DNA of 64,000 nucleotides from contig CBDCXR010000004.1 in the NCBI GenBank assembly GCA_965223845.1, positions 6,624,001 through 6,688,000 of the forward strand, given 5' to 3'. The DNA is from Planctomycetota bacterium. Its GTDB lineage: Bacteria; Planctomycetota; UBA8108; SXIK01. Position numbers and translations under genes: made by a program. A model generated the notes under the pieces. It was not told the DNA's origin, searched no databases, and saw only the letters and a program-made list of their open reading frames with translations. Positions within the stretch are counted from its first letter, which is position 1. Each line of letters starts with the position of its first letter. Below are positions 11,978 to 56,711 of the stretch, piece by piece.

Positions 11978-11996
11978 CCGATCGGTTGCCCACCAT

Positions 11997-16232: not shown

Positions 16233-16240
16233 TCGTCGAG

Positions 16241-17397: not shown

Positions 17398-20364
17398 TCA
17401 GCATCCCACTTCCCCACCCGGAGCCGCCCCCTCGCCAAACAGGAAGTTGAGCACCCGCAGCGCGTCCCCCAGCTCGAGGCTTCCCGACCCGTCCGTGTCG
17501 CAAGCCTCGCGACATCCCGGTGCGCCTCCTCCGCCGTAGAGGTGGAAGATGAGGTGCACCGCGTCGGCGATGTTGAGCCGCCCGTTCGCGTCGCAATCGC
17601 CGCGGAGGAAGCGATCCCCCGGGACGCTCGACGCATCGGCGGGATCCGTCCCGGCGTCGATCTCGTCACCGTCAAACGCTCCGTCACCGTCGCGGTCGAG
17701 CCCGAAGCGTGTCCCCATCGTTCGCGGCACGATCGTGAAGGTCATCACCGCATCGTTTCGCTCGATCGCGCTCAGTAGGTCGACGTCGGTCAGGCTCTCC
17801 GTCGCCCGGTCCGCTTGAAATCGTCCTTCCGGCGTGAGGACGAATCCGCGTTCTTCGCTTGCGAATCGACCGCGCGCGACGAGCTCGCCGTCCCCGGCGC
17901 CGGCGCGAAGGCGGAGAAGCTCGTAACGCGTTCGGCGCTCCGCGATCGTGTCGGCCCGGAGGGTGATCTGCTGCCCGACGATCGGCGCGAGACCGGTCGG
18001 GAACTCGAGCATGTAGGCTTCGAGCTCGCGCGCTTTTTGATCTCCGCTCCGTCCGCCGATTCCGTCCGGGAACGTGAAATCGCCGAGCGCATTTCGGAAG
18101 AAGTTGTAGATCGTCGGCATGGCGCCGTCATTCAGGAACCCGAACCCGCGCACTTGATCACCGAGGTGCGGCGTCGGAACGGGAGTGAAGAGGAGGGGTT
18201 CCTCACTCACGACGTCCGGCATCGAGAAGCCGAACATGCCGACCTTCTGGTAGAGCGCGCGGAGGTGGGGGACTTTGAAATCCTGCGGCAGCGCGATGAA
18301 CGCGCCCTTGCCGTCGGCTCCGTCGGCCCCGGGGTGGCACTGTGCGCAGGCCGTACCGTCTCCACCGAGTCCGGTTCGACTGCCCGGACCGTCGAAGATC
18401 TCTTTTCCCGCTACGGCCACGGGGCTGAACGATCCGCCGAGTGGCGCGATCGGGTTGGGGCCGAGACGGATCGGCAGCACGAAGTCGGCGAGTTGCTCCA
18501 TCGTCTCGTCCGGAAGCGGCTCTCGGCGCCCGAGGAGTCGCTCGAAGGTCGGCTTGAACGACAAGAAGCTCTTTCGAGTGTCGAGCGGGTCGTCTTCGCC
18601 GCCATTCTGATCGCCGCGCCAGTGTAGGCTTCCCGCGCCGTCGAGGCCGCGGAAGCTCAGCGTCGTCATCGGCCCCTTGAGCGGATGGAAGGGCGCGAGA
18701 GTCGTCCCCGCCTGCGGGAGGACGGGCGGAACGACATTCGCCTCGATCGCACCCTCGGGATCGCCGAGGTTCCACGCGAGAGCGTCGATATCGCCAAAGA
18801 TGTGACAGCTCGCGCACGAAGAGTCGGCGTGAGCCGACTGCCGCGTATCGTAGAGGACGGCGCGGCCCGTGCGAATCGCCGCCGGCTCGGGGTCGTGTCC
18901 GATCGGGATGGCCGTTACCGCTCGGCGAGCTTCCGTGTCGACAACGGAGATCGTGTGGTCGACGCGATCGAAGACGTAGAGACGCGCGCGTTCGGGGTCG
19001 AGGGCGAGGCCCGAGGGTCCCTTTCCGACGGCGATGCGATCGATGACGGCGCCGCTCGAATCGATCACCGCAACGCGATCCGATCCCATCGCGGCGATAT
19101 ACGCTCGCTCTCCAGACGGATCGAACAGGATCTCGGTCGGGAGGGCGAGGGCCTGGGCGCGAAGCTCGTCCGTGCTTTCGCGAGTGCGGTCGATCTGCGG
19201 GTTGAGGTCGACCGCGCGGATCGTTTCGCTCGCCGTTCGCGGATCGATGATCGAAACTCGGTTGTCGACGATGTGGCCTTCGAGCCGCGTGAGAAAGGGC
19301 GTCGCGTTCCGCGACTCGAGGTTCGTCGCGAAGACCCGACCCGTCGCCGGATCGACCGCGAGACCGAAGATCGTCGTCCCGACCGAACTCACCCGCGCGG
19401 TCTCGCGGGGCGGTGTCGTGGTCGCGTCGATCTCGAAGACGTCGTAGTCGGGGAGATCGAACCGGATGCGCGGCGACCAATCCCGGCCGTCTGCGTCGAG
19501 CCATCTCGAGCCGTCGAAGCGGACGATGATCCCCGTCTCGGGTGGCTGATCCCCGGGAGGACCCTGGTACTCGCGGGGCGGAGGAAGCGATCCCGGCGCC
19601 GAGAAGCCGTCGTCGATGAGCCGGTCGGCATCGAGCGAGCGGGAAGCGGCGACGAAGTGGATGCTCGTCGTCTGATTGCCCGAAAGAAACGCGGCGGCAT
19701 AGACGCGCCGGCCGTCGGGACTCACCGCGAGAGCGCGCGGAGTATCCGCGAATAGACTCAGAATTGTCGGTTCGGTGCTCGGATCCGAGACTTCGAAGAC
19801 CCACACGTCCGCGCGGCCGACGCCGGGTGTCGTGAGCTCCGGATCTCCCGGGCGGTTCTGTCCGCGGTGCGCCGCGGTGATGAACGCGCGCTCACGCGCG
19901 GCGCCCGCGAAAACGATGTCGCGCGGTTCGTCACCGACGAGGAGCGTCTCGCGCACGAACGGACGCTGCGGATCGCGGACGTCGACGATCGAGACGCTGT
20001 CGGAGAGATGATTGACGACCCAGAGCTCGCCGTCGCGCGCCGCAATCGCGACCGGCTCGAGCCCGACGGCGACGGACGCGATGCGGGTGAAGTCGGACGC
20101 GTTCTCGCGCGCGCCGGAGAGCCGGAAGATCTCGACGTGGTGGTCGGAGATGTTCGCGGCAAAGAGGAGATCGCCTCCCGGAGAGAGAGCGATCGGGCGC
20201 ACGGGGCCCGACTCGAAGTGCACGAATCCAGCGTCGTCGCTTGCGCCGTCTGCGATCGCGAACGACGCCAGCACGCTCGCGATCGCGACGATCCCGAGCG
20301 AGCCTTTGATCCGGATCGGCGCGTCTTGCCGCTGGTGAATTCTTGTTGTTCTCGCGCTACTCAT
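17398..20364 (-). CDS. Secreted YVTN/YncE-like beta-propeller + di-heme cytochrome c (peroxidase/MauG-like) + dockerin-like domain
   Basis: Propeller repeats (VGLEPVAIA, VGDEPRDI, VGKGPSGLALD); CASCH (18802-18816) and CAQCH (18334-18348); KVPHLRALY; C-terminal FLRGDCDANG...; ATGA overlap with the upstream gene. Confidence 0.82.
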   Translation of the reverse strand: MSSARTTRIHQRQDAPIRIKGSLGIVAIASVLASFAIADGASDDAGFVHFESGPVRPIALSPGGDLLFAANISDHHVEIFRLSGARENASDFTRIASVAVGLEPVAIAARDGELWVVNHLSDSVSIVDVRDPQRPFVRETLLVGDEPRDIVFAGAARERAFITAAHRGQNRPGDPELTTPGVGRADVWVFEVSDPSTEPTILSLFADTPRALAVSPDGRRVYAAAFLSGNQTTSIHFVAASRSLDADRLIDDGFSAPGSLPPPREYQGPPGDQPPETGIIVRFDGSRWLDADGRDWSPRIRFDLPDYDVFEIDATTTPPRETARVSSVGTTIFGLAVDPATGRVFATNLESRNATPFLTRLEGHIVDNRVSIIDPRTASETIRAVDLNPQIDRTRESTDELRAQALALPTEILFDPSGERAYIAAMGSDRVAVIDSSGAVIDRIAVGKGPSGLALDPERARLYVFDRVDHTISVVDTEARRAVTAIPIGHDPEPAAIRTGRAVLYDTRQSAHADSSCASCHIFGDIDALAWNLGDPEGAIEANVVPPVLPQAGTTLAPFHPLKGPMTTLSFRGLDGAGSLHWRGDQNGGEDDPLDTRKSFLSFKPTFERLLGRREPLPDETMEQLADFVLPIRLGPNPIAPLGGSFSPVAVAGKEIFDGPGSRTGLGGDGTACAQCHPGADGADGKGAFIALPQDFKVPHLRALYQKVGMFGFSMPDVVSEEPLLFTPVPTPHLGDQVRGFGFLNDGAMPTIYNFFRNALGDFTFPDGIGGRSGDQKARELEAYMLEFPTGLAPIVGQQITLRADTIAERRTRYELLRLRAGAGDGELVARGRFASEERGFVLTPEGRFQADRATESLTDVDLLSAIERNDAVMTFTIVPRTMGTRFGLDRDGDGAFDGDEIDAGTDPADASSVPGDRFLRGDCDANGRLNIADAVHLIFHLYGGGGAPGCREACDTDGSGSLELGDALRVLNFLFGEGAAPGGEVGC

Positions 20365-23300
20365 CCCTCGCATCCCGGAAAGATCCCGCACGCGAGCTCG
20401 GCGTCGGGAAGCACGGCATCGCACTCGTCGAACGGCGGCGGGGGAGGCATCCCGTCCCCGAAGAGGTAGTTCAAGTGGTAGATCGGATCGGCGATGTTGA
20501 GCGCGTCGTCCGCATTGGTGTCCGCGGAGGCCGCGCAGTCGAGCGTCGTCTCGTCCGCGAAGAGGAATCCCAACACGAAGATCGGGTCGGCGATGTTGCT
20601 ATCGCCGTCGATGTTCGCATCGCCGCGACGAAACTTCGACGAAACGAACTCGAGCGCCCCCATGTCGACTGCGGGCCCGAGGATGCGCGGTCGACCGTCG
20701 AGATCGATCGTGGTCGGGACGGGCTCCGAGCCTGAATCGATCGCGGGTGACCCGGCCCGGAGGCGGTAGTCGCCCGCTACCCAAACGACGCCCTCGCCTT
20801 CGCCCGGCCGACGGAACATCGGATCGGCGTCGAGGACCTCGGTGATCTCCGCGTGCCCGGGAAGCACTCCTTCGACGATCGAGTGCGACACGCGGGTGAA
20901 CCCGACGGGTTGCTCCTCGTTTCTCTCGTGCACGATGCCCTTCCCCACGCCGTTACCCGAGACGACGGAGTTCCGCACGGTCAGCTCGGACTGCCAGACG
21001 TGGACAGCCGACGTATCGTCGCCGGCTTGATCCCCGTTGTTCTCTGTGATCGTGCAGCCGACGAGGTCGACGCGGAGCTCGCCACCGACCAGCGCGCTAC
21101 CGGAATAGCCGTGATTCCCGGCGATGATCGAGTCCCAGATCGTAAAGGACGAGTTGTAGCTCTGAATCCCCGATAGCCCGTTCGCGACGATTCGACTGCC
21201 GACGATCTTGAGGTCGTCGCCCTGTGACGAGAAGATCCCGTTCACGAAATTGCGCTCGATGCGGCAAGCCGTGAGCTCGGCCTTGACCGATCCGGCCGAG
21301 TAGAAGCCTCCGCCGAAGCGCCTTCCGTGACCCCCCACGAAGCCGCGGGAGCGGGAGAGGACCGAGCGCTCGATCACGACCTTCGCGTCCTCCCAGCAGG
21401 TCACGCCGTTCTGCTCGTTCTCGTCGATGATCGCGTCCGCGATGCGCACCTCGGACTTGGGCCCGCAGACGATCCCGGAACTGGCGTGCCTGACCACGAC
21501 GACGCGCTCGACGTTCGATGCAGAATCCGCGGACACGAAGATGCCGATGCCGTCGCTGCCCTCGACTCGAAGGTCGGAAACGTTTCCCCGAACGTCGACG
21601 AGCCGTCCGGAGATCGTGCTGCTCGAGGGACCCGATCCGGCGAGGCTCACGCCGGGTCCGAGAAGAAAGGTGCCGACGTACGTTCCCGGAGCGAGGTGGA
21701 TCGTGCGGTTCGGCGCGCTCGGAGCCGAACAGGTGGGAAACGGTGCACCCATGTCGCCTGCGTCACGCCCGGTGCCGAGGCACGGCGATTCCTGCGAGAG
21801 GGCGAAGCTCGGATCGACCGCGCGATCGAGCGTCTGGTACGGCCGGTCTCGCGTTCCGTCGCCCCCGGGCTCGACGTCGGCATCCACCCAGACCGCCGCG
21901 GATTCACCAAACCCACAGAATCTCGGATCGAGGTTTATGTTTCCTTCGCCCGCGGGCGGCTCACCCTCGACGCACGAGAACGACACCTCGACCGGATTCT
22001 CTTCGAGCGCACCCGCGAGGCCGCCGGCCGAATTGTCCCAGAGGATGCTGCTCTGAATCTGCGCCGGACCGCCCACCCAGACGCCGCAGCCGAAGACTCC
22101 GAAATTGTGCGCGATCGTCGTGCGATCGATCCAAAGTTGGGTGCCATGTGTGGTCACCGCGCATCCGTCGTTGGCTACGAGCAGCGATCGGGAGACGTCG
22201 GCGCTGCCGTCGACGAAGTTGAGCCCACCCGCATTTCGCTCGATCCGCGAGTCCTCGATTTCGATCTCTGCGCCTCGAGAGGCGAGGCCGATTCCGTTGT
22301 TGCCGCGGATCGTGACGTTTGCGAACGACGGTTTGGAGCCGATCTCGCAGAACGCTCCTCCGAACGCTCCTTCCGTGATGAGAGAGTCCTCGATCAGTGG
22401 CTCGGACTCGACGCCACACTGGAGAGCGTAGGGAAAGCCTCCCCGCAGTGTGCACGCCGTAATGACGGGGGCCGCGCCGCGCGCGACGTAGACGTGTCCT
22501 TCGACTGTGACGTCGCGCACGACGGCATCCGCCCGTACGTCGCGAAGGTCTCCGGCGATGGTCGTGCGCGACGCTCCCGCACCCGCGATCGAGAGCGGGG
22601 CGGGAAGCGCGGCGACGATCTCGTACCGACCACTCGCCAGATGAAGCGCGGCGCTACTCGGGCCCGGTTCGTCGCACGAGGTCCCCGGCCAGCCTCGATC
22701 CGCGCCGTTCTCGCCGGTCGCTCGACACGGTGAGTTCGGTGCGAGCGCCCAGTCGTAGGCGCTATCGAGACGGAGAGCGCGAAACGGCCGATCGGCAGTA
22801 CCGTCGCCGCCGGCGGCGGCGCCCGCGTCGACGTAGAAATCGCCGCGTGCCCAACCGCAGAAGAGTGGATCGACGGAGATGTTGTTCTGGCCTCGGTCGA
22901 CGAAGGGCTCGGGCAGGCAGGAGAAATCGACGAGGAGTTGACCGTCGCCGTGGATCAAGATCTCCTCGTCCGCGGAGTTCGCCCACACGACCGAGTCGCG
23001 AAGTGAAACTTGCCCGCCGTTGATCCGCAAACCGATCGACGAATTTCCCGCGATGGTGACGCCTCGCGCGTTCACGCTGCTAGCATTGTCGACGACGAAG
23101 ATGCCCGCGGCGCCTGCGGAGGACACGTTCGCGGCGACCAAGCAGTCCGCGATCTCCGCCCGGGTGGCGATCAGATAGATTCCGGCACCGAAAAAGCCGT
23201 CGGTTAAGTTCGCTAGCACGCGGCAACTTCTGATCTCGACGCGCATCGATCTCATGAACAAGCCACCGGTTCCGCGGCAGCGAACGACATCGACGTTCTC

Positions 23301-24767: not shown

Positions 24768-24889
24768 GGGACTTCCCCAGATTCCCTGCCGCTGGTCTAG
24801 CCTGTCGACGCGCTGAGCGATCGAACGTCACACCCGTCCGCACGCCCCGAGGATGCTTTCCATTCTCAACGTTCTCGACGGCGCGAGCA

Positions 24890-29296: not shown

Positions 29297-29421
29297 GGGG
29301 TCCCCCTCGGATTCAACGGTGGAAGCGAGAATGACTCGAGCGAACGGTGGACCCTCGAGATTCGCGCACACTTCGAAACGACTTGGCACCATTCTCTGCC
29401 CTCTTTTCGCCGCCCGCATCA

Positions 29422-33837: not shown

Positions 33838-33939
33838 GCCGTCCTCCCTCGGACTTCTCGACGGAACCAGCGGCACCTCAGCCGATGCTGCAGCACGCGT
33901 TCCGGTCCATTCTCGTCGCTTCCTTCGCCGGCGGCACGA

Positions 33940-38304: not shown

Positions 38305-38632
38305 GGGAATTCCTTCGGGTTCGACATCGCTCGGAGCGGTCAAAAGGGAGCTGCCCCAACGGCGACAGAACGGCGATCGTTCTCTCGTCACCCGCATTCT
38401 CGAGCTCTCCCCGTCACGGAGCACAAGACTACCTCGCGTTCGCGCTCGACTCAAAAACCGTTGTGCGCCGATTCCTCGGGCCTTGCGCATTCGGCGGCTG
38501 CGCTACAATGCGCGCCGCTTTCGGCGTGGTGCACGCCGGGAGCGAGCGGAGTCGACTGCCGGCTCGCCGCGCGTCGATCGTCCGTCCCACCGCGATTTCT
38601 CTTTACTCCCCGAACACCGAGACCCGTTAGCG

Positions 38633-40877: not shown

Positions 40878-41074
40878 GGTTTCCTCGCCCTCTCGCGCGA
40901 TTCTGCGCGGCGAGCGCTCCTCGCGAGTGAATCCTGATTTCGGGTCGATGTTCTACCATCTGTAGCCGCGGCCCACCAATCGCCGGATCACTCGTTGCGC
41001 CGGTGGGCAGAGCCGCGTCAAGATGGCCTCTACGGATGCGGAAGTCGACGGCACGAGACGAAAGGACGGGAACC

Positions 41075-41980: not shown

Positions 41981-41986
41981 CTCTTC

Positions 41987-43867: not shown

Positions 43868-44256
43868 GATTCCCGTTGACTCGCTCTTCGTAGCGGCGCG
43901 ATCATGGCCGAGTCGGGGTGGAGATCGATTGATCGGGTCAACCTACTGGTAGCGGTAGAGAGAGGCGTCAATTCGGCCGGAGGGCGGTAGAGATCTGCCC
44001 TCGCGAGTCTGGCGCCAGGGCAGTGTTCTTCCGGAGACGCGTTTCCCAGCGAATCCGGAACGGTCCCAGACCGGTTGGCAACGCTGAAGATAGGTAGCGT
44101 GTCAACAGAGTCATCGCGTCGTTCTCAGGCGCGATCGAGATAGACGCGTCCAACACCGTGATTCTTCGATTCGCGGGGCATTCGGACTCGGCGCGAAGGC
44201 GGCCTCCGAGTCCGACGTCACTGTCGCCCAAATCGCGAGTACTGGAGGGTTTCGGC

Positions 44257-47200: not shown

Positions 47201-50200
47201 CACTGGAGGCTCGCCGTGGAGCTCCGTCGCTCACTCGAGTCGAGCCGCACGAAGTTCAGATCGAAGGGGGAGATAGCGTCGACGTCTTCGGCGAGAATCT
47301 GACGGAGGACACCGTCATCTTCTTCGCCCACCGACCTTTGCGAGACGCCAGACTCGTCGAAGGGCGCGAGGAGACGTTCATCCGCGGCATCGCGCCCGTG
47401 GGCGATGTCATCGGGCCCGTCGACGTGACTGCGCGCGACCCGGCCGGCGACTTCGTGCTCGAGGGCGGAGTTCGGTACGTGCGAGAGGGCAACCACATCC
47501 TCGGACCGGAGCAGGGCGAGGCGAGCCTCGCCGAGGGAACGGCGCGGTTCTCGTGGTACAACCCGGTCGCCTTCGAACGGATCGAAGTCTTGGACGAAGG
47601 CGGCAACCTCATCGACGAGCTCGACGGCGAAGCAACGGCCTACCGTTCGGACGCCGGGGATCGAGAGTCGATCACGTATTCCTTCGTTGGTTACTCCTCG
47701 GCCGATCAAGCGTCCGCGGAGCTTTCCCTCACGGCCGTTGCCCAGGACTGTGACACTCCTCCGCCATTGAGCGCCGTCGTTCAGGCACTCGATCAACGTC
47801 TCGGGGGTCTCGAGTACGCCGACGTCGAATTCAGTCTCTACGGCGCACATTCAGAGGCTGACTCCGATCGCTGCGCCGAGCCAGGCGGCGTGCTCAAGTT
47901 GGCGGCGGCAGATCTGCCACCGAGAACGGGCGCGCTCGAACCAGGCGTGGGCAACATTTCTCGGCCGAATCTTCCCGATGCGAAGCTGCCTCAAAGCGAA
48001 GCGGTGACGGGATTCTCGCTCGAAAATCCAGCGACGAAACTCGAGTTCGCGGTCCACTATCGAAAGCTCGCGGTCGCGGCGGGCGTGCGTCTGCGCGGCC
48101 ATCTCATCCAAACTTCTCCGGATTCAGGCTTTGAGGACGAGTTCTCATTTCCGCCGGTCAACATTTCGGCGACCAACGATTGGCACGTCGTCACCTACTT
48201 CCGCGCCGATTCGGACATCGGACGTGAACTCGAGGGACCCAACGATCCCGGTCCCCGGCCTTGCGGCGGCGGCGAGTGCGCCGGGGCGGAGATACCGGCC
48301 GGCGACTACGTTCTCAAGCTGTACGCGGTGAGCGGCGACCGCCAGATCCCCTACTACGCGCTCAGTAGTAATCCCGAGCCGGACGAGCTGCTCATTCCCG
48401 GGACACCCTGTCCGCCCTATCCGCTCGTACGAGTTCGCGATGTTTCCGGCGAGGCGACGCTGCCGCTCGTGTCGGGTCTCCACTGCGGGAAGCTCGAGGG
48501 AGTGCAGTGCTCCAACGACGATGTCCGCGTTCGAGTGACGGCTTTGGGTTTTTGGCTGGACGAGTGCAATCAAACTCACTCCCTCGAGCCGGTCGATCCT
48601 CGTTTCGAGTTTCAGTGGAAGATCTATACCGGATCAGTCCCGCGGGTGATTCCCTGGAGCCACCGAAACTGGTTTGAGGCTTGCCTCGCCTGCGGCTGTT
48701 ACGAGGTCGAGATTTCCGTTCGGCAAACGGGCTGTCCGACCGTTCTCAAGTACACTCGAGAGCTCGTGGTCACGCCGCCGAACTTGGCCTGTAATCCGTC
48801 GCGTCGCTTCGAGTTCCTGTACCCTCAACCTTCGCCGGCCGGCCTCGACGGCATCATCGGACTCAATCCGCCGGATGGACGACTCGGACTCGGCTCCGCG
48901 GATGAGCGCCCCTTGGAGTTTCAGATCCTCGTTTCGCCGAACACGACTTGCGGCGGTCCAGGCACGGGAAGCGTTGACAAGGACGATATCGAATTCGACA
49001 TCGGCATCCCTGGCACCAATACCTTCCGCATGGGAATTCCGTTCGAAGTCACGGACGGCTGCCCGAACACGATCGGCGGGAGCAAATACTTTCGAGTTAG
49101 GATCGCTGACCTCGGTGCCGTTCCGTATCACCCGGCGCTCGAAAGTTTCAACGGGACGCAGCTCTGGGTAATCGGCCACGCGAAGGGGACGAACGAGCCG
49201 TGGCAATCATTCTCTGGCACTCTGCGGCTCTATAATCCGCCGGCGTGCTTGGCGACGAACTCGTGGCGCGGTACCTGGGAAGAACCCGGATGCTATCGTT
49301 TCGAAACTCGCTCCAGCGAACAGCCGGAACAGCGCTTCTCGATGGGGCCGAGTCTGCCGATTGACATCGACCTTCCGGAGCTCGGTGACGGGGGGGCGGC
49401 GTCGATCAACGTCGAGGGCCATTCGTCAAACGCGGTCCAGGGCGGCTTCACCTCCCAGTTCACTCTCGAGGGCGGTGTGTGGTCCGAAGAGTCGGGCGTC
49501 GGCGGTATGCGCGGTGGCATGATGGGAAACGACATCACCGGCGCGCCGCTCGAGGTGGAGCCGAGCAGTGGCGCCGCCAAACGGCGGTGGAAGGGGGCCG
49601 ACGGAGACGACGACGATGACAACGACGATGACAAGAAACTGCCGTCGTGGGAATGGTGTGATGGCGGCAACCTCTTTAACTACGAGTTCAAGGAGGATCT
49701 CTACTCGGGCGTTATCTATCAGGGGACGATTTGGGTTATCCCGGTCAGCATCTGGGCAAATATCGGCTTCGGCTTTTTTCTCAATATTGATTACCAGCTC
49801 ACATTCAAGCTCCATCCGTTCGCGATCATCGACGGGTTCGATGCCGTCTGCGATGCGTTCGACGTCCCTCCGTGCAATCCGCTCGAGGGCTGCAATCCGT
49901 TCGAACCCGATTCCTGCAACATCAATTTCGAGAACTGCAAGATCTCGCTCGCCGACGCGTGGATGTACCTTCTTGTGCAGGCGGGAATCAATATTCCGGC
50001 GTCGATTCGCGCCGACATCCTCTTCGGAGTAGCCTCGGTCGCGATCACGGTGAAGCCGGAGGCGTCGTTTCACATCACGCCGTGGATCGAGGCGCACGCG
50101 CAGCTCCCCGATCCCGTGTTCGCCCCGCACATGGATCTCGGCGCGAGATTCAAACTCTTCGCCTCGTTGAAAGCCTGCATCTTCTGGGGGCTACAGTGCA

Positions 50201-52875
50201 TTTCGATCCCCGACCCGGTCGACACTCCCATCATCGACGAACCGATTTTCGAGTGCCCGAACCCTCCGTTCGATTGCGTGTCACCCAACTGCATCGAAGT
50301 GTGCGAGGAAGATGAAGAAGGCGATAAATTCCGGCAACGATTCTTCGATAAGGATCGGGCCGCGAGACTTGCTGGGCGCCAGGACAAGGGTGGTGCCGGG
50401 ACGGGGATCTTCAAGATCCACGAGGTCGTCTCCATTCCCGAGACGTTCTACTCGCCGGACGGAGGGACCTACGTCGACGTCTGGATGAGTGCGGAGGAGG
50501 GAGACGGTGGTGCACTCAACGTGCGCCGCGTCGGTGACGTCTCCCGTGACTACGTCTTCACGTTGGGCGGCCCGAACCCGTTCTTCCTCGACCCGTCTGG
50601 TGCTTTCATCACCGACGATATCGCTCTGATCGCGTTCACGCAGTCGAATCCCAACTTGATGATGAATCTTCCGGCGCTCGACATCGATGATCCGGGGCCG
50701 CACGTCGACGCCTCGAACCACAACGCGGCGGTCGCCAATATTCGCGTCCACGCCCTAACCCCCACAACTTCCGGTTCGGCACAGCTCATCAGTTCGGGCG
50801 AGGACGTTTCGGAGGCGTCGGTGAACCAGGCGAGTTGGCGGGCCGATGGAATGGCGTCCATGGCCGGCATGCCGGGCGCGTCCGAGGCTTGGCTCGCGTG
50901 GGTGCGCTACAACGATGAGTTCCTCGAGGATAAGGGCACCCGCGAGATTCGAGTGTACTGCACCCCACCGGGATGCCGCTCGGGTCGCACGTTCGAGACG
51001 GAGGTCGTCCGAGATCTACAGCCGACGCTCAACCGAACGGGCGTCTACGTTCGACGCATCACCTACACCGAGCAGGACGGCGTGCACGCGGTACCTGGTT
51101 CGTCTCCGATGGAAGTCTCCACCGTCGCCGGTATCAACATCGAACCGGAAGTCGCGGCCCTTCGTGACGGGAGCGCCGCGGTTTGCGTGTGGGTTCACAA
51201 CGGCCAGCACGAAAACATGACGGACGACAATCGCGGTTGGAATTTGCATTTCTCGCGTTGGGAGCGAACCACCGGTCAGTGGAGCGCTCCCGTCGACGTC
51301 GTCGACTCCGCCATCCTTGCAGATTACCCGGGAATCCTCGAGCCGCGCGTGGTGGTGAAGCCCGGAGATGCCGGGAGATTCGAGGGCCTTCTCGCGTTCA
51401 CGGCCGTTCCCCCCGGAGCGGAGCCGAACGACACCGGGTTGGGCGGCCTTCGGTTCCTCTACACCCTTCGTTTCCGAGAAGAGGCCAACGGTACGGTCAC
51501 GTTCGATACGCCGATCCGAATTCGGGGACGGTGCGACGCCCCGATATACGTCTGGGACTACGAGTTCGGCTACGAGCTCGATGTCTTTGCCCCCAGCCCG
51601 GAGGACGACCTACTCTTCAAGTACGGCCCGGAGGCAGTGATCGTGTTCCAGTGCCGCGGCGTGCCGGGTACGAGGGCGAGCGCCGGCGATGTCATGGTCA
51701 CCGCGCTTCCGGATTCGACGGACGAGTGGTCCCCGCCCGTCTGCGTGACTGGGAGCGACCGGACCATTACGAACACGGTGGCGTCGGTCAGCCCGATTGG
51801 CGGCGTTCACGCGGTGTATCTCGACCAGGGCGCCTCGATCGAGGGGTTCGCGGCGGAGATTCAGCAGAACGGCCGCGTCGCAGCGATTCAGGGAATTCCC
51901 CCGCGCGGTTACCAAACCATCGACTGCGCGCTCGACCCCGACTTAGCGCTCGTGCGCTGCGATCTGAGTCATCAGTTCGCGGGTCCCGGTTCGACCGTCA
52001 CGGCCCGAGTACGCGTCGAGAACCGCGGACTCGCAGGGTCCGCGGTCGATTCTGGTGGGAATAGCCTCAGCGGCGTGCAGATTCTCTACTATTCGGATGA
52101 CCCGGAGTTTCGGGACGACCCAGGGCGCGTGGTCGCGGCGCTCGAGCTGCCCGAGATTCCGCCGGGCATGACGCATGACCTAACGTTCGAGATCGAGATG
52201 CCCCACGACCCCGTTCGACTCGAAGCGCGTGTGTTCCCGAATCCCATCGATCGCGACGATTCGAACAACAAGAAATCGTGCGATTTCGGCGCGCCTCGAC
52301 CGCTCGATCTCTTCTGCCAGGCGAGAATCATCGAAGACAGCGAGCGGGGCGAGAACATCGTCGCCGTGCTCGAGTGGCAGAATCCCGTTAAGTACGAGGA
52401 GATGCTCGTCTACCGCGATCAGAAACTGATCGCGTCGATCCCGGGATCCGTCGAACGTTTCGTCGACATCGAAATCGAGGAGACGGTCAACCTCGGCGTC
52501 GAACATGTCTACTCGATTCGAGGTTGCCTTGGCGTGTCGCGCTCGAGCTACGCAACGTGTGCACTGCAGCCGCCGATCGAATCTTCCGGTGACTTCCGTC
52601 GTGGCGACGCCAACGCGGACGGCGCAGTCAACATCTCCGACCCGATATTCGGCCTGAACCGGCTGTTCGGCGACGGCGAAGTCTTGCCGTGTCTTGAGAG
52701 CGGCGACGTCAACGCCGACGCGGCGTTCAACATCGCGGATCCGATTTTCCTCCTCAACAATCTGTTCGGCGACGGACCTTCGCCCGTCGAAGGCCACGGG
52801 GCGCGCGGATTCGACTGTGGTCCAGATCCCGATCCGGAGTCGTCGCTCGGTTGCGACCTCTACGACAAGTGCTGA
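44257..52875 (+). CDS. Giant secreted protein (~2,870 aa): SBBP beta-propeller, IPT/TIG repeats, unknown core, CARDB-like Ig domain, dockerin-like C-terminus
   Basis: GGAGG RBS; LRFEPNFGQ and LEYDFVLSPGADP; repeated YSTYLGG; four IPT-like units (e.g. GVEPNTFPLDGGVAVEVIGGNF); VRVENRG; FRRGDANADG. Confidence 0.88.
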   Translation: MFRAVLLISSSIVLYAETSLSFPLDPQNKVAGISWAVERGFGALPLRFEPNFGQVAAEARYLARGAGYAICIEPIGATMVFRQNAGDADSARGSVVRLRFVAANPRASFSSVGRLPGVSHYITGRDRSRWMARVPHFSRVEAAEVYSGIDVAYYGSDRRLEYDFVLSPGADPDSICLRFDGVTNIAIDSDGNLILDTANVPIRQRAPLAYQRASDGSHQPVRVAYTLDSEQRVKFDLGPYDPDRELVIDPIVDYATLLGGDAQDLANDVAVDGSGAMYLTGHTSSTDFPTKAGGFDVTKDASDAFVTKISPDGRNVIYSTYLGGPESEGGTGHAIVVDDLGRAHIGGSTLASYYVTPNAVQEVGERPAFAMRLSADGSDVEYGTLFTGAVGATIRDIAVSDGLMYVVGDTDSTDLPIRGGFQTNAFGGSEAFVAVFDPDAPAVIGGVAESLVYSTYLGGSGDDFGRGIAMFGPGNVVVTGATRSTSVLARMFPTRNAIQNDPGASAMTTAFVTGIATRVAGPGSLTFSTFLGGSAAENDGEDDGGIATDAAGTIWVVGSTRSLDFPVSEDADQGKNLGERDAFVARIGDEGTGLEYATYLGGQSDDYAVDVEVDTAGDVHVVGDSASSSFPLLDPVQSAAGSFDAFLALYSGNGSRIHSTLYGGDGRERVGGVAVRAPGASVFAGSTREHTVSRFPTTEGAIQSTFWGSSMAFVVAIGGDSSCPEDARLEGVTPKLVSTAGGDLSFLGEGFTDEVDAYVGDQLLESPERSDERIAGFLPALPAGVYDASLRCGGEILSVLEDAVVVAPPPILEGVEPNTFPLDGGVAVEVIGGNFRGETVVRLGDVPLANPLVAADGRSIRGVAPAQAAPGQYDVVATDSRGVSRLEGAVTYFAFDPCDGEDVRIDGVSPDVIEPLVETAIDVRGAGFVAEHSLRLESGRVVSASVESPELIRANIDGVEPGLWDVELLCPTGAVVARLRDALEARRGAPSLTRVEPHEVQIEGGDSVDVFGENLTEDTVIFFAHRPLRDARLVEGREETFIRGIAPVGDVIGPVDVTARDPAGDFVLEGGVRYVREGNHILGPEQGEASLAEGTARFSWYNPVAFERIEVLDEGGNLIDELDGEATAYRSDAGDRESITYSFVGYSSADQASAELSLTAVAQDCDTPPPLSAVVQALDQRLGGLEYADVEFSLYGAHSEADSDRCAEPGGVLKLAAADLPPRTGALEPGVGNISRPNLPDAKLPQSEAVTGFSLENPATKLEFAVHYRKLAVAAGVRLRGHLIQTSPDSGFEDEFSFPPVNISATNDWHVVTYFRADSDIGRELEGPNDPGPRPCGGGECAGAEIPAGDYVLKLYAVSGDRQIPYYALSSNPEPDELLIPGTPCPPYPLVRVRDVSGEATLPLVSGLHCGKLEGVQCSNDDVRVRVTALGFWLDECNQTHSLEPVDPRFEFQWKIYTGSVPRVIPWSHRNWFEACLACGCYEVEISVRQTGCPTVLKYTRELVVTPPNLACNPSRRFEFLYPQPSPAGLDGIIGLNPPDGRLGLGSADERPLEFQILVSPNTTCGGPGTGSVDKDDIEFDIGIPGTNTFRMGIPFEVTDGCPNTIGGSKYFRVRIADLGAVPYHPALESFNGTQLWVIGHAKGTNEPWQSFSGTLRLYNPPACLATNSWRGTWEEPGCYRFETRSSEQPEQRFSMGPSLPIDIDLPELGDGGAASINVEGHSSNAVQGGFTSQFTLEGGVWSEESGVGGMRGGMMGNDITGAPLEVEPSSGAAKRRWKGADGDDDDDNDDDKKLPSWEWCDGGNLFNYEFKEDLYSGVIYQGTIWVIPVSIWANIGFGFFLNIDYQLTFKLHPFAIIDGFDAVCDAFDVPPCNPLEGCNPFEPDSCNINFENCKISLADAWMYLLVQAGINIPASIRADILFGVASVAITVKPEASFHITPWIEAHAQLPDPVFAPHMDLGARFKLFASLKACIFWGLQCISIPDPVDTPIIDEPIFECPNPPFDCVSPNCIEVCEEDEEGDKFRQRFFDKDRAARLAGRQDKGGAGTGIFKIHEVVSIPETFYSPDGGTYVDVWMSAEEGDGGALNVRRVGDVSRDYVFTLGGPNPFFLDPSGAFITDDIALIAFTQSNPNLMMNLPALDIDDPGPHVDASNHNAAVANIRVHALTPTTSGSAQLISSGEDVSEASVNQASWRADGMASMAGMPGASEAWLAWVRYNDEFLEDKGTREIRVYCTPPGCRSGRTFETEVVRDLQPTLNRTGVYVRRITYTEQDGVHAVPGSSPMEVSTVAGINIEPEVAALRDGSAAVCVWVHNGQHENMTDDNRGWNLHFSRWERTTGQWSAPVDVVDSAILADYPGILEPRVVVKPGDAGRFEGLLAFTAVPPGAEPNDTGLGGLRFLYTLRFREEANGTVTFDTPIRIRGRCDAPIYVWDYEFGYELDVFAPSPEDDLLFKYGPEAVIVFQCRGVPGTRASAGDVMVTALPDSTDEWSPPVCVTGSDRTITNTVASVSPIGGVHAVYLDQGASIEGFAAEIQQNGRVAAIQGIPPRGYQTIDCALDPDLALVRCDLSHQFAGPGSTVTARVRVENRGLAGSAVDSGGNSLSGVQILYYSDDPEFRDDPGRVVAALELPEIPPGMTHDLTFEIEMPHDPVRLEARVFPNPIDRDDSNNKKSCDFGAPRPLDLFCQARIIEDSERGENIVAVLEWQNPVKYEEMLVYRDQKLIASIPGSVERFVDIEIEETVNLGVEHVYSIRGCLGVSRSSYATCALQPPIESSGDFRRGDANADGAVNISDPIFGLNRLFGDGEVLPCLESGDVNADAAFNIADPIFLLNNLFGDGPSPVEGHGARGFDCGPDPDPESSLGCDLYDKC

Positions 52876-52893
52876 CCGGAAGAGGAACCTCGG

Positions 52894-53910
52894 TTACCGA
52901 GCGTCTTCGTGGGTTTTCGTCGAACTCGCGCCCGTCCCAGTCGAAAGCGCGGAAATCGCGTAGCGCGCGTTGATCGCGAGCGACGCGGCTTCACTCGTCG
53001 ATCCGTCGGGCCAGCTGACGCTGACCCGCACCCGCGCGGAGTCGGGAACATCTCCGAGGCCGATATGGACCCTTTGCGGACCGCCGGTTCGCCGAGCGGG
53101 GGTGCAGGTCCGACGGTCGATTCCCTCGCCGGTGATCGTCATCTGAATCACCGCCCGTGACTCGTCGTCGGTCTCGTCCGCCGCGACAAGATGGTTCTCC
53201 GGTGGCGATAGATCGAGCGTGAGGTAGGCGCGCGGCTGAAATCCGTTCCAAAGAAGAACCGTCGGCTCGGAAGGTCCGAGGAGGAGTCCGAGATCGAGTC
53301 GGCCGTCCCGGTCGAAATCCTCGCAGACGATACCGCGGACGCCGGGCGCCACGTCGAACGCGGTTCCGAGTCGCGCGCCGACTTCGCGGAATCCGGTCTC
53401 GTCGCTGAGGTAAAACCGGAGTCGACGCGGCGCACCGAGCTCGCCGACGGGCGGCGGGGCGACGACGTCGATGTCGCCGTCGTTGTCCGCGTCGAACCAG
53501 AGACCGAGGCGAACGACGTCGCCGGGAAGCTGGGTGGGCGAATCGCCGCAATCGCTCTCGATGAGCCAGGCGACGCGATGTCGCTGGTCGGCGGCGATCC
53601 ACTCCTGCGCGATCGCTTCGAACTCACGCTCCGGCTTCCACGTCGCGAATCCGAGTCGACCCGTCCGAAGATCGACATCGAGGTCGCGCTCGTCGCGGTG
53701 GTCACCGGAAGCGATCGCGGGCACGACGCGCACCGAGAGCAGAGCGGGATCCGCGACCCGAGGGAGAGGAACGCCCGGTCGAAGCCGCTCGGCGGTCCAG
53801 ACCTCAGCCACCGGGCGCGGACCGAGCCAGTAGAGGAGAGCTCCGATCGAGACGGCAGCGATGGCGAAACTCGCCGCGCGACGACCGCTTCCGCGGGGCG
53901 ATTGCGGCAT
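52894..53910 (-). CDS. Membrane-anchored FG-GAP/ASPIC-UnbV (CRTAC1-like) protein, short and degenerate
   Basis: N-terminal TM helix; WFDADNDGDIDV, EDFDRDGRLDL, VHIGLG...VSWPDG. Confidence 0.65.
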   Translation of the reverse strand: MPQSPRGSGRRAASFAIAAVSIGALLYWLGPRPVAEVWTAERLRPGVPLPRVADPALLSVRVVPAIASGDHRDERDLDVDLRTGRLGFATWKPEREFEAIAQEWIAADQRHRVAWLIESDCGDSPTQLPGDVVRLGLWFDADNDGDIDVVAPPPVGELGAPRRLRFYLSDETGFREVGARLGTAFDVAPGVRGIVCEDFDRDGRLDLGLLLGPSEPTVLLWNGFQPRAYLTLDLSPPENHLVAADETDDESRAVIQMTITGEGIDRRTCTPARRTGGPQRVHIGLGDVPDSARVRVSVSWPDGSTSEAASLAINARYAISALSTGTGASSTKTHEDAR

Positions 53911-54062
53911 GACGATCCTCCGATCGGACGCTTGCTCGAACGGACGAGCCCGGCGCGGCGGACGGCAACGATCCGCCGGACGCGCGGCATCATCCCGGAA
54001 CGATGCTCCGTTGGCCAAGGAAAACGCGATGGCGAGAGAACAGCACACACCCTCTCGATGAC

Positions 54063-54332
54063 TCAGCGCTGGACGCGTCTCCCATATCGGTAGATCGAAT
54101 AGACGTCGCGGTCGAGCTTCCGGAGCGCCCGGAGCAGTATCGCCGCGACCCGCTTTCGTGACCGTCCCGTGCGGCGGGCGATGTCGACGATGGATGTTCC
54201 TTCGACCCCGGCGAGTGCGATGACTCGCCGCTCGTCGCGGTCGAGCGTGCGGAGTGCCTCGCGGAGTCGACGGTAGTAGTAAGGGTCGCCCCGGCAGGCG
54301 CGGATCGAGCGGCGACGCAGGCGCATCCTCAT
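54063..54332 (-). CDS. Stand-alone sigma-70 region 4 (ECF-type HTH) protein
   Basis: GAGGAGG RBS; LREALRTLDRDERRVIALAGVEGTSIVDIARRTGRS...LLRALRKL; no region 2 upstream. Confidence 0.65.
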   Translation of the reverse strand: MRMRLRRRSIRACRGDPYYYRRLREALRTLDRDERRVIALAGVEGTSIVDIARRTGRSRKRVAAILLRALRKLDRDVYSIYRYGRRVQR

Positions 54333-54659
54333 CTCCGGTCCTCCTCGGCTGCAGCCTCGCGACTGAACGCGAGTGAGTGAGGGGTTCGGTTGCGGGCCGG
54401 GATCCACTGTCCCTTCCGTCGGCAATCTCGCCCGCGAAACTCTCCATCGTGATTTACCATCGAGTTCTCCCGAGGTTCGATCAGGAGAGACCGGACGAAG
54501 AGCGATCGTAACGCGTAGACCGTATTGCGGTGCCATCTCTGCTCGGATTCGCGCGGAATCAGGCTGCCGCGGAAAATGAGCGGTTACGCGCTCAGGAGTT
54601 TCGTTCTCCAAAGCACGTTGTCGGCGAGTGGATGCTCTTGGCTCGAGGGGTGTAGATCG

Positions 54660-56711
54660 ATGGAGAATCAGAAGACGGTAGTTGCCAAAGCGAGCCTGTG
54701 GGGCGTCGTGCTTGCGTCAGTGGCCGGGGTTTCGCCGGTTTCGTTCGCGCAGCTTTGCGAGCGCGAGGATCCGGTCGAGATCCGTCTCTACTTTCCCACG
54801 GCGTCTGGAACGTACGTGGGGATCAAGGCGCCGAGCTACCGCGACGAGATCGTCGGCGGGATGACCGAGCCGTTTCACGCCAGCAATCTCGATTTCGACC
54901 CCGCTCTCGTCAGCGACGACGATCTCATCCGTTCGATCTCGGATCTCATCCGCAAGGATTTCGAGGAATTCGACGTGGTCGTCACGACGTCTCGCGATCC
55001 GTTCGAGCATCCCGAGCCGCGTTCGGGGACTCGCACCGCGGTGATCTGCACGGATTCGAAAGCCGTCGAGATCACGGGGGGCGGCTGCGGTCATCTCATC
55101 GGATACGGTCACAACACGGGTCCGTCCGGGTATCTCGGTTGGCCGGACGTCGGTTACGCGCGCATCTGGGCCGCGAGTCTGACCGAGGTGCCGCCGACGA
55201 CGCCCTGTGCGGCCGGAACGCCGCCGTGCCGTTCCTGGCTGATCGGGACACACCACACGTTGGCGAACTGGACTCGCGCGATCGGCTCGACGCTCGCGCA
55301 TGAGATTGGCCACTCCTTCGAGCTGGGCCACTGCGAGGCGCGCGGCGGTCCGGGTGGAGACACCGACCACATCATGGCGCCGAGCACGTTCAAGTGCATG
55401 GGGACGACGACCGCCGGCCTCACCTGCGACGATCGCGTAGACAAGAGACGCTACTTCAGCGATACGAGCTACGGGATCATCGGATCGAAGACCGGGCTCG
55501 CCGTTCACACGATGCACAACTGGGACTTCGTCAACACGAACAGCACCGAAGCGGTGGAGTTTAGCATCGATTTCGTAAGCCCGAGCCTCTCGCTCGACAC
55601 GCTCTGGTCGTACGAAGGCGCGGACTGCCCGTGGGGTCCTCCCACGCTCACCTCGACGGGTCTGACGACCTTTCGCGGACGCAGCTATCCGTCGTACCGG
55701 GTCACCTGGCGAGATCCTCGCCCTTGGAGCGGCGGCACGAGCGGGCGCGTCCCGGGTGGGGGGAAGTTCCACGTCGGAGTGTCCTTCGTGCAGAAAGCAC
55801 CGGTCATCCCTACGCTCGTTCGCTTCTGGGAGAAAGATGCGAGCGGAGCTCTAGTCGAGTTGTCCGATCATCCTCGTTTCGTCGCCTACGACGACGCGGC
55901 CCTCACCGCGAGCGCTCCATGTCTCTTCGAGCTCACACTCTACAATCCCGGGAATTCGGTCCTTCGGATCGCTGACTTCCACGTGCGGTTCCTCCCGCGA
56001 TTGCCCTCGCTCGAGAGCCTCGTCGAGTCGCAGATTCTGTCTCCTCTAGATCGCGCGGGACGCCCCATCACGCGGCACGACCGGTTCAAGCTGCCGAACG
56101 ATATCCTGCTCGCGGGAGGATCGTCGGTGCAGGTCCCGCTGGCGGCCCTCTCCGACGACCGATTCATCGACATCGCCGCCAAGGTCGAACCGTCCGACGA
56201 CGAAGGGCACTACTTCGTCGGGAACCGTCTCCTCGGGCCCTTCCCGGCGACGGTGACGTACGTCACGGCGGAGATCCACGACATCGAAACGGAGAGCGTC
56301 TCGCGGATGTACTACACGATTTCGGGACACGTTCCGGACTGCAACTGCAACGGGCGAGACGACAAGCTCGAGATCGCCGACGGCAGCCTCGCCGACGCGA
56401 ATGCGAACGGAATGCCGGACATTTGCGAGCGAGAGTTCATCCGCGGCGATTCGAACGGCGACGGGACACCGAATCTGTCCGACGCCCTCTACACGCTCGA
56501 TTGGATGTTCGGTTTCTCGGGCGCTCCGATCTTCCCCGATTGCTTCGACGCTCTCGATAGTTCCGACCAAGGATCGATCAACATCTCCTCGCCGGTCTAT
56601 CTCCTCAACTACCTCTTTAGCTCGGGGCCCGCACCGCCCGCGCCGTTCCCGGGGTGCGGTCAGGATTTGACTCTCGACATCCTCGACTGCAATCGCCTCA
56701 GTTGTCCGTGA
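54660..56711 (+). CDS. Secreted metzincin-like zinc metalloprotease with dockerin-like C-terminus
   Basis: Signal peptide; DFEEFDVVVTT; HEIGHSFELGH with Met-turn HIMAP; DCNCNG...DANANGMPDICE; FIRGDSNGDG. Confidence 0.82.
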   Translation: MENQKTVVAKASLWGVVLASVAGVSPVSFAQLCEREDPVEIRLYFPTASGTYVGIKAPSYRDEIVGGMTEPFHASNLDFDPALVSDDDLIRSISDLIRKDFEEFDVVVTTSRDPFEHPEPRSGTRTAVICTDSKAVEITGGGCGHLIGYGHNTGPSGYLGWPDVGYARIWAASLTEVPPTTPCAAGTPPCRSWLIGTHHTLANWTRAIGSTLAHEIGHSFELGHCEARGGPGGDTDHIMAPSTFKCMGTTTAGLTCDDRVDKRRYFSDTSYGIIGSKTGLAVHTMHNWDFVNTNSTEAVEFSIDFVSPSLSLDTLWSYEGADCPWGPPTLTSTGLTTFRGRSYPSYRVTWRDPRPWSGGTSGRVPGGGKFHVGVSFVQKAPVIPTLVRFWEKDASGALVELSDHPRFVAYDDAALTASAPCLFELTLYNPGNSVLRIADFHVRFLPRLPSLESLVESQILSPLDRAGRPITRHDRFKLPNDILLAGGSSVQVPLAALSDDRFIDIAAKVEPSDDEGHYFVGNRLLGPFPATVTYVTAEIHDIETESVSRMYYTISGHVPDCNCNGRDDKLEIADGSLADANANGMPDICEREFIRGDSNGDGTPNLSDALYTLDWMFGFSGAPIFPDCFDALDSSDQGSINISSPVYLLNYLFSSGPAPPAPFPGCGQDLTLDILDCNRLSCP

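Follow-up and report, generated by a model that had tools for sequence, protein, structure and literature searches.

How do eight neighbouring genes for secreted proteins come to share one small module, and what does that module bind? The question is raised by a window of 64,000 nucleotides from a Planctomycetota bacterium (contig CBDCXR010000004.1, positions 6,624,001 to 6,688,000 of the forward strand; window coordinates below count from its first letter). Between 17.4 and 56.7 kb, eight large open reading frames (ORFs) with strong third-position GC bias each contain one copy of a dockerin-like domain, here called the tag. In a first-pass annotation, the tag had been taken to dock a set of secreted proteins to a common scaffold or surface receptor. 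Following the analysis described here, it is considered moderately probable that the eight tagged proteins form, together with cohesins probably encoded on the same chromosome, a non-cellulolytic cohesin-dockerin assembly like the 'planctosome' proposed for other planctomycetes.

The tag and its predicted fold

The G+C content of the window is 62-67%. The tag spans about 75-95 residues. All eight copies are in the reading frame of their ORFs and terminal in them, and third-position GC supports these ORFs. Each carrier starts with a hydrophobic, signal-peptide-like stretch, as read from the sequences. In the following list, coordinates run from the F of F-x-R-G/S-D to the end of the tag.

Tag copy A: 17610-17398, minus strand, short and divergent, C-terminal in ORF 17398-20424, without the Pro/Cys extension
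Tag copy B: 20633-20361, minus strand, extended form with four Cys, C-terminal
Tag copy C: 25159-24890, minus strand, extended form, C-terminal
Tag copy D: 29691-29422, minus strand, extended form, C-terminal; Pfam Dockerin_1 15.4 bits, below cut-off
Tag copy E: 34209-33940, minus strand, extended form, C-terminal
Tag copy F2: 41168 to about 41443, plus strand, N-terminal, straight after the signal-peptide-like stretch; non-canonical second loop D-A-S-D-V-G-S-V-T-I-S-S
Tag copy G: 52594-52875, plus strand, extended form, C-terminal; Pfam Dockerin_1 17.4 bits, below cut-off
Tag copy H: 56436-56711, plus strand, extended form, C-terminal; non-canonical second loop D-S-S-D-Q-G-S-I-N-I-S-S

Seven of the eight tags are C-terminal and one, in the Kazal protein (F2), is N-terminal. 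The eight copies had been placed correctly in the first-pass annotation, to within a codon or two. The expression [FLIVY].R[GS]D.[ND].[DN]G matched eight times in the six-frame translation of the window, each time at the start of a tag, while 200 mononucleotide shuffles gave a mean of 0 matches (maximum 0) and 200 triplet shuffles a mean of 0.01 (maximum 1). Copy A is 34-44% identical to the other tags and has the highest direct Pfam Dockerin_1 score of the eight, 19.5 bits (cut-off 22.9).

Dockerin type I (PF00404) has an architecture of two tandem segments of about 22 residues, in each of which a helix comes after an EF-hand-like Ca loop (D-x-[DN]-x-[DN]-G-x-x-x-x-x-D). Both F-hand segments were found in all eight copies. 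When a profile of the eight copies was compared with the sequences of the PDB, 29 matches were obtained at E<=10, of which the best 15 were all dockerins, headed by 2y3n_B (E = 1.6e-4). Copy B was modelled by AlphaFold from an alignment of eight sequences, resulting in a mean predicted local distance difference test (pLDDT) value of 73.2, with core blocks at 71-90. In the Foldseek comparison of this model, ranks 1-34 were occupied exclusively by dockerin chains, the top nine having target-normalised template modelling (TM) scores of 0.72-0.85 and root mean square deviations of 1.3-4.0 Å. The corresponding E-values were modest (best 2.6e-3, none <=0.001) because the domain is small. Profile and fold both bear out the earlier description of the tag as dockerin-like. 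Judged by segment architecture and predicted fold, the tag belongs with the type-I-like dockerins as a genuine, if diverged, member that misses the curated Pfam score.

As suggested in the first-pass annotation, a hidden Markov model (HMM) was built from the eight copies. It found no ninth copy among all six-frame window ORFs of at least 60 amino acids (aa). Among 1.84 billion representative sequences, the tag profile matched 40,949 clusters (50% identity) at E<=0.001, 24,218 at E<=1e-10 and 452 at E<=1e-30. A word-indexed protein search with the tag gave 1,405 matches among 8,000 scored candidates, and all 15 listed matches with an organism name came from Planctomycetota or Planctomycetes. 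Family statistics were obtained from 645 tag domains in the 241 best-scoring proteins, a list that was ranked by total score and therefore favours multi-copy proteins. The consensus of the 645 domains reads F-x-R-G-D-x-N-x-D-G...D...L-F-x-G-G-x-x-P-x-C-x-D-A-A-D-x-N-D-D-G...D...L-L-x-Y-L-F-x-G-G-P-x-P-P-x-P-F-P-x-[C/P]-G-x-D-P-T-x-D-x-L-x-C, and the Ca-ligand columns hold D, N, S, T or E in 610/645 domains for loop 1 and in 615/645 for loop 2. The domains are C-terminal in 228 cases, N-terminal in 210 and internal in 207, with up to 10 copies per protein, which argues for a module and not a terminal signal. Twenty-eight other family members were scanned. Their non-tag parts comprised PKD, fn3, Laminin_G_3, DUF7619, PPC, He_PIG and GBD_T9SS_assoc domains, and a glycoside hydrolase was found in none of the 28. 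One family member, P0090 (842 aa), begins with sigma-70 region 4, followed by two tags, a structure explained either by a fused gene call or by a regulatory protein whose tagged part is extracytoplasmic.

In seven of the eight window copies, the tag ends in a Pro-rich tail of about 25 residues (P-x-P-F-x-x-C-G...L-x-C...C) that contains three further Cys. Cys38 and Cys87 occur together in 432 of the 453 family domains that reach column 87. Cys76 and the tail Cys are both present in 114 domains and both absent in 268, with a single one in 71. From this pattern we infer that two disulfides, one constant and the other optional, would hold the tail against the module; all seven extended window copies hold the Cys for both proposed pairs. 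Two forms of the second loop can be told apart. Subtype 1, D-x-N-A-D-D-x-x-N-I-A-D, is present in copies B-E and G, and subtype 2, D-x-S-D-x-G-x-x-x-I-S-S, which lacks the canonical ligands at positions 5 and 12, in F2, in H and in the C-terminal tags of P0029 and P0044 (described below). The two tag subtypes possibly correspond to two cohesin specificities.

Cohesin-bearing candidate partners

No cohesin was detected in the window, either by Pfam on the eight carriers, the adjacent kinase and 21 other ORFs, or by a profile of 187 inter-tag modules, which had no match in any six-frame window ORF at E<=10. The absence of a classical cohesin here had been noted correctly at first. The giant protein G, which had been put forward for screening against the tag, did not yield a partner either: the cohesin profile left it unmatched, no Pfam family was found beyond residue 1000 and no internal repeats by BLASTP.

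Among the best tag matches, proteins with alternating tags and modules (X) of about 165-180 residues predominate, in the following architectures.

Tag-X-tag: protein length about 350-435 aa
Tag-X-X-tag: protein length about 550-600 aa
Three, four or five tags: protein length about 610-1,090 aa

At least two tags are present in 236 of the 241 best-scoring proteins, and a cohesin-sized spacer lies between tags in 139 of the 241. The cohesin family PF00963 occurs in the precomputed annotation of 22 of 120 listed tag-bearing proteins. Four cohesin carriers were singled out, P0109 (394 aa), P0029 (589 aa), P0044 (586 aa) and P0003 (906 aa), with the order dockerin-cohesin-dockerin. The inter-tag module profile recognised three modules in P0003, two each in P0029 and P0044 and one in P0109, eight in all; those of P0029 and P0044 lay outside the training set of 187 modules.

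By sequence, the similarity of the modules to cohesins is too weak, so that a fold comparison was needed: phmmer searches of the PDB with P0007 and P0044 gave weak cohesin similarity only (best E 0.012). P0109, modelled with 74 relatives, reached a pLDDT of 89.9 and a predicted TM score (pTM) of 0.83. All Foldseek matches listed for this model were cohesins, 92 of them at E<=0.001, with 2vn5_C at E 4.8e-10 and TM scores of 0.7-0.8 to single-cohesin chains. Orthologues in other genomes pass the Pfam Cohesin cut-off of 24.1 bits (P0007 56.2, P0037 32.8 and P0115 27.1 bits). From the models and profiles we infer that classical-fold cohesins exist in the genome of the window, outside the window itself, and that they are always flanked by the same tag. 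This fits the earlier expectation that the partner lies elsewhere, with four proteins assigned to the same contig, eight cohesin-like modules and the cohesin fold of P0109. It also makes the alternative then offered, a new type of partner, unnecessary.

The following arrangement may be proposed. Each carrier would be exported by the Sec pathway, as suggested by the leaders seen in the sequences, and would fold in an oxidising, Ca-containing compartment. The tag would then plug non-covalently and in a Ca-dependent manner into cohesin modules. The sockets would be supplied by at least four dockerin-cohesin-dockerin adaptors (P0109, P0029, P0044 and P0003) with one to three cohesins each, and these adaptors would both receive cargo and dock in their turn. 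In this way the beta-helix proteins, the haem beta-propeller, the Kazal inhibitor, the putative metallopeptidase and the giant SBBP/IPT protein would be held together as a mixed set outside the cytoplasm.

A related proposal, which goes further and which we regard as unlikely, is that tag and cohesin make up a self-polymerising plug-and-socket material and not a hierarchical scaffold. Dockerin-cohesin-dockerin proteins, including those with two to four units, could form head-to-tail chains or branches and so build up a protein mesh outside the cell or on its surface, and any secreted protein with a disulfide-clasped tag could be hung on it, whether protease, inhibitor, haem protein or beta-helix adhesin/lyase. 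Such a mesh would constitute a phylum-wide modular surface matrix of Planctomycetota, in which subtype-specific tags would serve as addressable positions.

Several results weigh against the proposed assembly of cargo and adaptors. On the side of the tag, the Pfam Dockerin_1 cut-off (22.9 bits) is reached by none of the eight isolated copies, of which three score 15.4-19.5 bits and five are unmatched; whole carrier proteins gave no Dockerin_1 match at E<=0.01, and an NCBIfam scan of the tags no meaningful match. Tags of relatives do pass (P0003 47.8 and P0044 44.0 bits, for example), so that the window copies represent a diverged branch of the family. The second loop departs from canonical Ca ligands in F2 and H (V or Q at position 5, S at position 12). 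The C-terminal extension of the copy B model has low confidence (blocks at 50-64), so that it is from Cys co-occurrence only that the disulfide pairing is drawn. On the side of the cohesins, P0109 (23.6 bits), P0044 (21.4) and P0029 (17.4) remain just below the Pfam Cohesin cut-off of 24.1 and P0003 is unmatched. The four proteins appear to be encoded on the window's own contig: they list a longest contig of 7,869,199 bp, as do proteins of the window (PstB among them), and the assignment follows from this shared length and not from a mapped position. No recognisable membrane or wall anchor was found in the four adaptors, which carry a tag at both ends; lacking a visible anchor, they leave a 'surface' location unproven, and the common scaffold or surface receptor of the first-pass annotation is not borne out by them. 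Given the high pTM of its three-domain model, P0109 may have its cohesin occupied in cis by its own tags, in which case they would compete with cargo. Finally, no experiments on any member of the tag family were found in the literature searched.

Two further results leave the balance as it was. Prediction of a complex between the copy B tag and the P0109 cohesin (residues 125-303) gave a score of 0.02 and a mark of 0.32, which speaks neither for nor against binding. A protein search with the cohesin profile gave 10 matches but missed P0029 and P0003, and is too insensitive to exclude further cohesin carriers. From the searches made, 18 tags and eight cohesin modules are known in this genome.

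This excess of known tags over cohesins would suit a different role for the tag, namely binding to a non-cohesin such as an envelope glycan, peptidoglycan or an S-layer-like protein, or acting as a stabilising cap, with the cohesins serving the adaptors' own tags. The lack of a cohesin in the window, the non-canonical second loops of F2 and H and a pTM of P0109 compatible with a cohesin occupied in cis point the same way. Against it, the tag matches cohesin-binding dockerins by profile and fold, and tag and cohesin modules share proteins throughout the family (139/241 with a cohesin-sized spacer, 22/120 with PF00963). The window tags also score like the C-terminal tags of the adaptors: profiles of N-terminal and C-terminal adaptor tags separate them only slightly, but seven of the eight score higher with the C-terminal one, by 4-16 bits. 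On the whole, a non-cohesin ligand or cap role is considered rather doubtful, and a cohesin-dockerin assembly is retained as the preferred reading.

The pairing of cohesin and dockerin is among the strongest non-covalent protein interactions known. To our knowledge, work on it has been almost entirely confined to cellulose-degrading Firmicutes. In the present family, such parts are found on proteases, inhibitors, redox proteins and adhesin-like proteins, as well as on plug-and-socket adaptors. If the binding proves true, it would reveal how these bacteria organise their secreted proteins, provide a concrete test of the 'planctosome' idea and offer protein engineers new pairs of orthogonal docking modules stabilised by disulfides. 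If not, the tag amounts to a widespread stabilising module in an ordinary cluster.

The tagged proteins and their arrangement

The proteins that carry the eight tags, with the domain that precedes the tag in four of them, are as follows.

Cargo A: 17398-20424, minus strand, secreted YVTN-type beta-propeller with a TSP3 repeat before the tag; Pfam Lactonase 32 bits, NCBIfam beta_rpt_yvtn 67.3 bits
Cargo B: 20361-24767, minus strand, right-handed beta-helix protein of 1468 aa; Pfam Beta_helix 119.9 bits, NosD 38.1 bits
Choice-of-anchor Q domain of cargo B: residues 1334-1374, window 20646-20768, minus strand; NF041518 38.3 bits (cut-off 25), ending 4 residues before the tag
Cargo C: 24890-29482, minus strand, beta-helix paralogue
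Choice-of-anchor Q domain of cargo C: residues 1397-1437, window 25172-25294, minus strand; NF041518 37.3 bits
Cargo D: 29422-33876, minus strand, beta-helix paralogue
Choice-of-anchor Q domain of cargo D: residues 1333-1391, window 29704-29880, minus strand; NF041518 34.7 bits
Cargo E: 33940-38490, minus strand, beta-helix paralogue
Choice-of-anchor Q domain of cargo E: residues 1383-1423, window 34222-34344, minus strand; NF041518 37.4 bits
Cargo F2: 41003-41851, plus strand, small Cys-rich secreted protein with two Kazal domains after the tag; Pfam Kazal_1 62.8 bits (two stretches), Kazal_2 40.4 bits
Cargo G: 44158-52875, plus strand, ORF of 2,905 aa with DUF7948, SBBP repeats and an IPT/TIG (choice-of-anchor Z) repeat
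Cargo H: 54525-56711, plus strand, secreted protein with the zinc-site-like motif HEIGHSFELGH

Most of the functions named in the first-pass annotation were recovered. Its di-heme propeller corresponds to protein A, which has two CxxCH haem motifs at ORF residues 537 and 693 and sub-threshold Pfam matches to SGL, TSP3_bac and CCP_MauG; its true start is probably the Met at 20373. The Kazal inhibitor was confirmed by Pfam, with two Kazal domains and the tag at its N-terminus, and DUF7948, SBBP and IPT/TIG were all found in the giant SBBP/IPT protein G. In G, an ATG followed by a signal peptide is present at 44257. About 1,800 residues of this protein (window 47155-52557) matched no Pfam family at E<=0.1 and showed no internal repeats by BLASTP; a weak feature-based lead connects them with fn3-rich proteins (score 0.82). 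For H, announced as a metalloprotease, the HEIGHSFELGH motif stands, while the family assignment is less firm: no Pfam family was found at E<=0.01, Reprolysin_3/4/5 matched below cut-off at 12-14 bits and a feature-based lead scored 0.81. On this basis, H is a possible distant reprolysin-like metallopeptidase. Pfam and NCBIfam detected no glycoside hydrolase or plant-cell-wall enzyme domain in any of the eight window carriers.

The statement that the cargo is unrelated holds in part. The secreted proteins do fall into unrelated classes, but B-E are four tandem beta-helix paralogues of 1468-1530 aa, 46-63% identical in their cargo parts and 69-82% in their tags. For the remaining four proteins (A, F2, G and H), BLASTP at E<=1e-3 matched the cargo part neither to another of the four nor to B-E. 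There are therefore five independent cargo classes and not eight.

In all four beta-helix paralogues, 4-5 residues separate the tag from the end of the choice-of-anchor Q domain (34.7-38.3 bits, cut-off 25). 'Choice-of-anchor' domains are named for preceding alternative surface anchors in different bacteria (10.1101/2023.03.06.531300). The dockerin stands where the anchor sits after such a domain, which fits an attachment role. This is also where sorting signals sit in other phyla, and together with the C-terminal position of seven of the eight window copies and the presence of GBD_T9SS_assoc in 3 of the 28 other tag carriers scanned, it would suit a tag that is a sorting or secretion signal, recognised and possibly removed by a dedicated machine like the C-terminal domain of the type IX secretion system (T9SS), PEP-CTERM or LPXTG. 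Such a signal is hard to reconcile with the N-terminal tag of the Kazal protein, with the 417 of 645 family tags that are N-terminal or internal and with up to 10 tag repeats in one protein. No transmembrane or hydrophobic helix and no sortase-type motif was found in the tag. The T9SS C-terminal domain folds as a beta-sandwich, whereas the tag has the helical F-hand fold of dockerins. A sorting signal is accordingly rated as highly improbable, and docking to cohesins is kept as the favoured explanation.

The numbers given above for B-E bear on yet another possibility, that the cluster is a local expansion of unrelated secreted proteins with a common promiscuous domain, that there is no shared assembly, that the tags have different partners or none and that the co-location is coincidental. 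Tandem duplication of one gene does account for half of the copies, the window has at least two tag subtypes (B-E and G versus F2 and H) and matches to the domain are very abundant (40,949 clusters at E<=0.001). Within B-E, the tags (69-82%) are nevertheless more conserved than the cargo (46-63%), which points to selection on a shared interaction. Five unrelated cargo classes are moreover found within 40 kb, and a similar clustering was observed elsewhere. A search of genome contigs with P0029 returned one distant locus (L001, from a Planctomycetota metagenome-assembled genome, 28% identity), in which four tags are present in four neighbouring ORFs within 13 kb (tagged ORFs at 1-10690, plus strand). 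These include the two proteins below, in the coordinates of that locus.

Beta-helix protein: 6004-7602, plus strand, tag-bearing
Reprolysin-IPT/TIG-cohesin-tag protein: 7835-10690, plus strand, 952 aa; Reprolysin_5 56.2 bits

With these observations taken together, coincidental co-location is thought improbable, and a shared cohesin-dockerin assembly remains the reading that is compared with known systems in the next section.

Known systems and neighbouring genes

With the type I dockerin-cohesin pairs of clostridia and ruminococci (PF00404/PF00963; 2y3n, 4uyp, 4fl4, 1ohz), the window tag has in common the duplicated Ca-binding F-hand segments. The predicted fold is also the same, both for the tag and for the partner module of the same genome. 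In dual-binding-mode dockerins, the helices are near-symmetrical, and the two near-symmetrical helices of the window tag would constitute a further likeness. Unlike type I cellulosome dockerins, the window copies score below the Pfam cut-off and mostly carry the Pro-rich C-terminal extension of about 25 residues with its conserved Cys. The cargo is not carbohydrate-active, as glycoside hydrolases were found in 0/8 window carriers and in 0/28 of the other carriers scanned. Where a cellulosomal scaffoldin has a string of cohesins beside a carbohydrate-binding module (CBM), the cohesin carriers found here alternate cohesins with dockerins; Pfam detected no CBM or S-layer homology (SLH) domain in the four same-genome carriers, and neither an SLH nor a sortase anchor was seen in them. 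In contrast to the Gram-positive anaerobes that bear cellulosomes, the host is probably a diderm bacterium of Planctomycetota type.

A non-cellulolytic planctomycete cohesin/dockerin machine is already in print, so that the general idea is not new. Such modules, without a link to cellulose, were described in freshwater Planctomycetes (Nemodlikiaceae) by Andrei et al. 2019 (PMC6461901). The 'planctosome' proposed there is peptide-degrading, with dockerin-bearing M12B (reprolysin-like) and M14 peptidases as cargo and an adaptor that carries both dockerin and cohesin. In that model, which is likewise a hypothesis, an LTD-anchored protein has P-domains and one terminal cohesin, and the adaptor has a hyaline repeat; neither was found here, where no search was aimed at them. 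Cohesin and dockerin modules in a planctomycete and the missing link to cellulases are shared with the system described here. Peptidase cargo is represented in the window only by H, through its motif and sub-threshold matches, but is clear in the reprolysin-IPT-cohesin-tag protein of the distant locus. The cargo is also broader here, with beta-helix proteins, a haem propeller and a Kazal inhibitor. The text of PMC6461901, taken apart from its supplementary figures 13-14, makes no mention of a Cys-bearing extension or of dockerin-cohesin-dockerin chains. More generally, no description of the Cys-bearing tail or of planctomycete dockerin-cohesin-dockerin adaptors was found in the literature searched, a comparison made apart from Peer et al. 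2009 and the supplement of PMC6461901.

Similar parts have been reported from other bacteria. For Ca. Stygibacter (Cloacimonadota; PMC8542988), a cellulosome-like, non-cellulolytic complex was proposed, with signal-peptide-bearing peptidases and other enzymes that end in dockerins. Its scaffoldin of 3,755 aa has tandem cohesins, CBMs and a T9SS-type C-terminal domain, and no such scaffoldin is present among the carriers found here. The giant 'Dockerin-type' proteins of Omnitrophota (10.1101/2023.11.21.568195) consist of repeating dockerin-like and beta-barrel units, in which a dockerin-like helix pair alternates with a beta-sandwich module, as it does in P0003, P0008 and P0121. In Omnitrophota, the beta module is CBM35-like, the units pack in cis into a ladder and the proteins reach at least 30,000 aa, whereas the beta module here is a cohesin by predicted fold and the proteins have 350-1,100 aa.

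Among the profile and fold matches of the tag was the double-dockerin S8 protease Clo1313_0689 of C. thermocellum (PDB 8x39 / 8x3a). This protease is thought to anchor to a cell-bound cohesin and not to an enzyme scaffold (PMC12484212). Its first dockerin has a non-covalent 'intramolecular clasp', and the disulfide-pinned tail proposed here may play the same stabilising role. It differs from the present case in coming from a cellulolytic organism and in having its two dockerins next to each other, while here dockerins flank a cohesin. Expanded dockerin counts in planctomycete genomes were reported in a kelp-microbiome study (PMC5264255), and a survey of cellulosome genomes (PMC11557425) mentions one bacterium of the PVC superphylum, with two cohesins in its largest scaffoldin.

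Around and between the tagged genes, further ORFs were recognised. Rfam and tRNA scans of the window were empty. Three tagless ORFs are interleaved with the tag cluster, all on the minus strand. Those at 40182-40877 (231 aa) and 41987-43867 (626 aa) had no Pfam or NCBIfam match, and that at 52894-54447 (517 aa) encodes an FG-GAP / ASPIC-UnbV protein that NCBIfam left unmatched. A POT/PTR2 di-/tripeptide transporter (244 bits) is encoded at 38219-40228 on the plus strand, with the beta-helix array on one side and the Kazal gene on the other. Its listed start overlaps gene E, and the true start probably lies well downstream. The transporter fits a peptide-harvesting theme and, by analogy with the 'planctosome' model, it may be compatible, together with the Kazal inhibitor and the putative metallopeptidase, with a role related to proteolysis.

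Upstream of the cluster, the plus strand at 1421-7972 encodes in a row DUF3450, a long protein of the ExbB/MotA family whose N-terminus is coiled-coil-like, another ExbB, a TonB C-terminal domain protein and a tetratricopeptide repeat (TPR) protein. Together they make up a TonB-type energising system a short distance upstream of the genes for the secreted proteins. It is followed at 10991-17131 by a row of PstS, permease, permease and PstB-like genes. The first phosphate-ABC permease (11934-14495, plus strand, 853 aa) has WD40-type propeller matches at residues of about 344-520 before BPD_transp_1, an unusual Pst permease fusion. The closest non-self relatives of PstB (16241-17131, plus strand) are at most 78% identical and belong to mixed phyla; close relatives of the source lineage seem to be missing from the protein collection.

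On the far side of the cluster, a Ser/Thr kinase of 1,611 aa with TPR repeats and a C-terminal malectin domain is encoded on the minus strand (56698-62230), directly downstream of a gene for an extracytoplasmic function (ECF)-type sigma factor (61508-62230). The kinase and sigma factor ORFs overlap by 26 bases, and the 3' end of the kinase gene convergently overlaps that of tag gene H by 14 bases (56698-56711). The kinase could be a regulator of the tag cluster.

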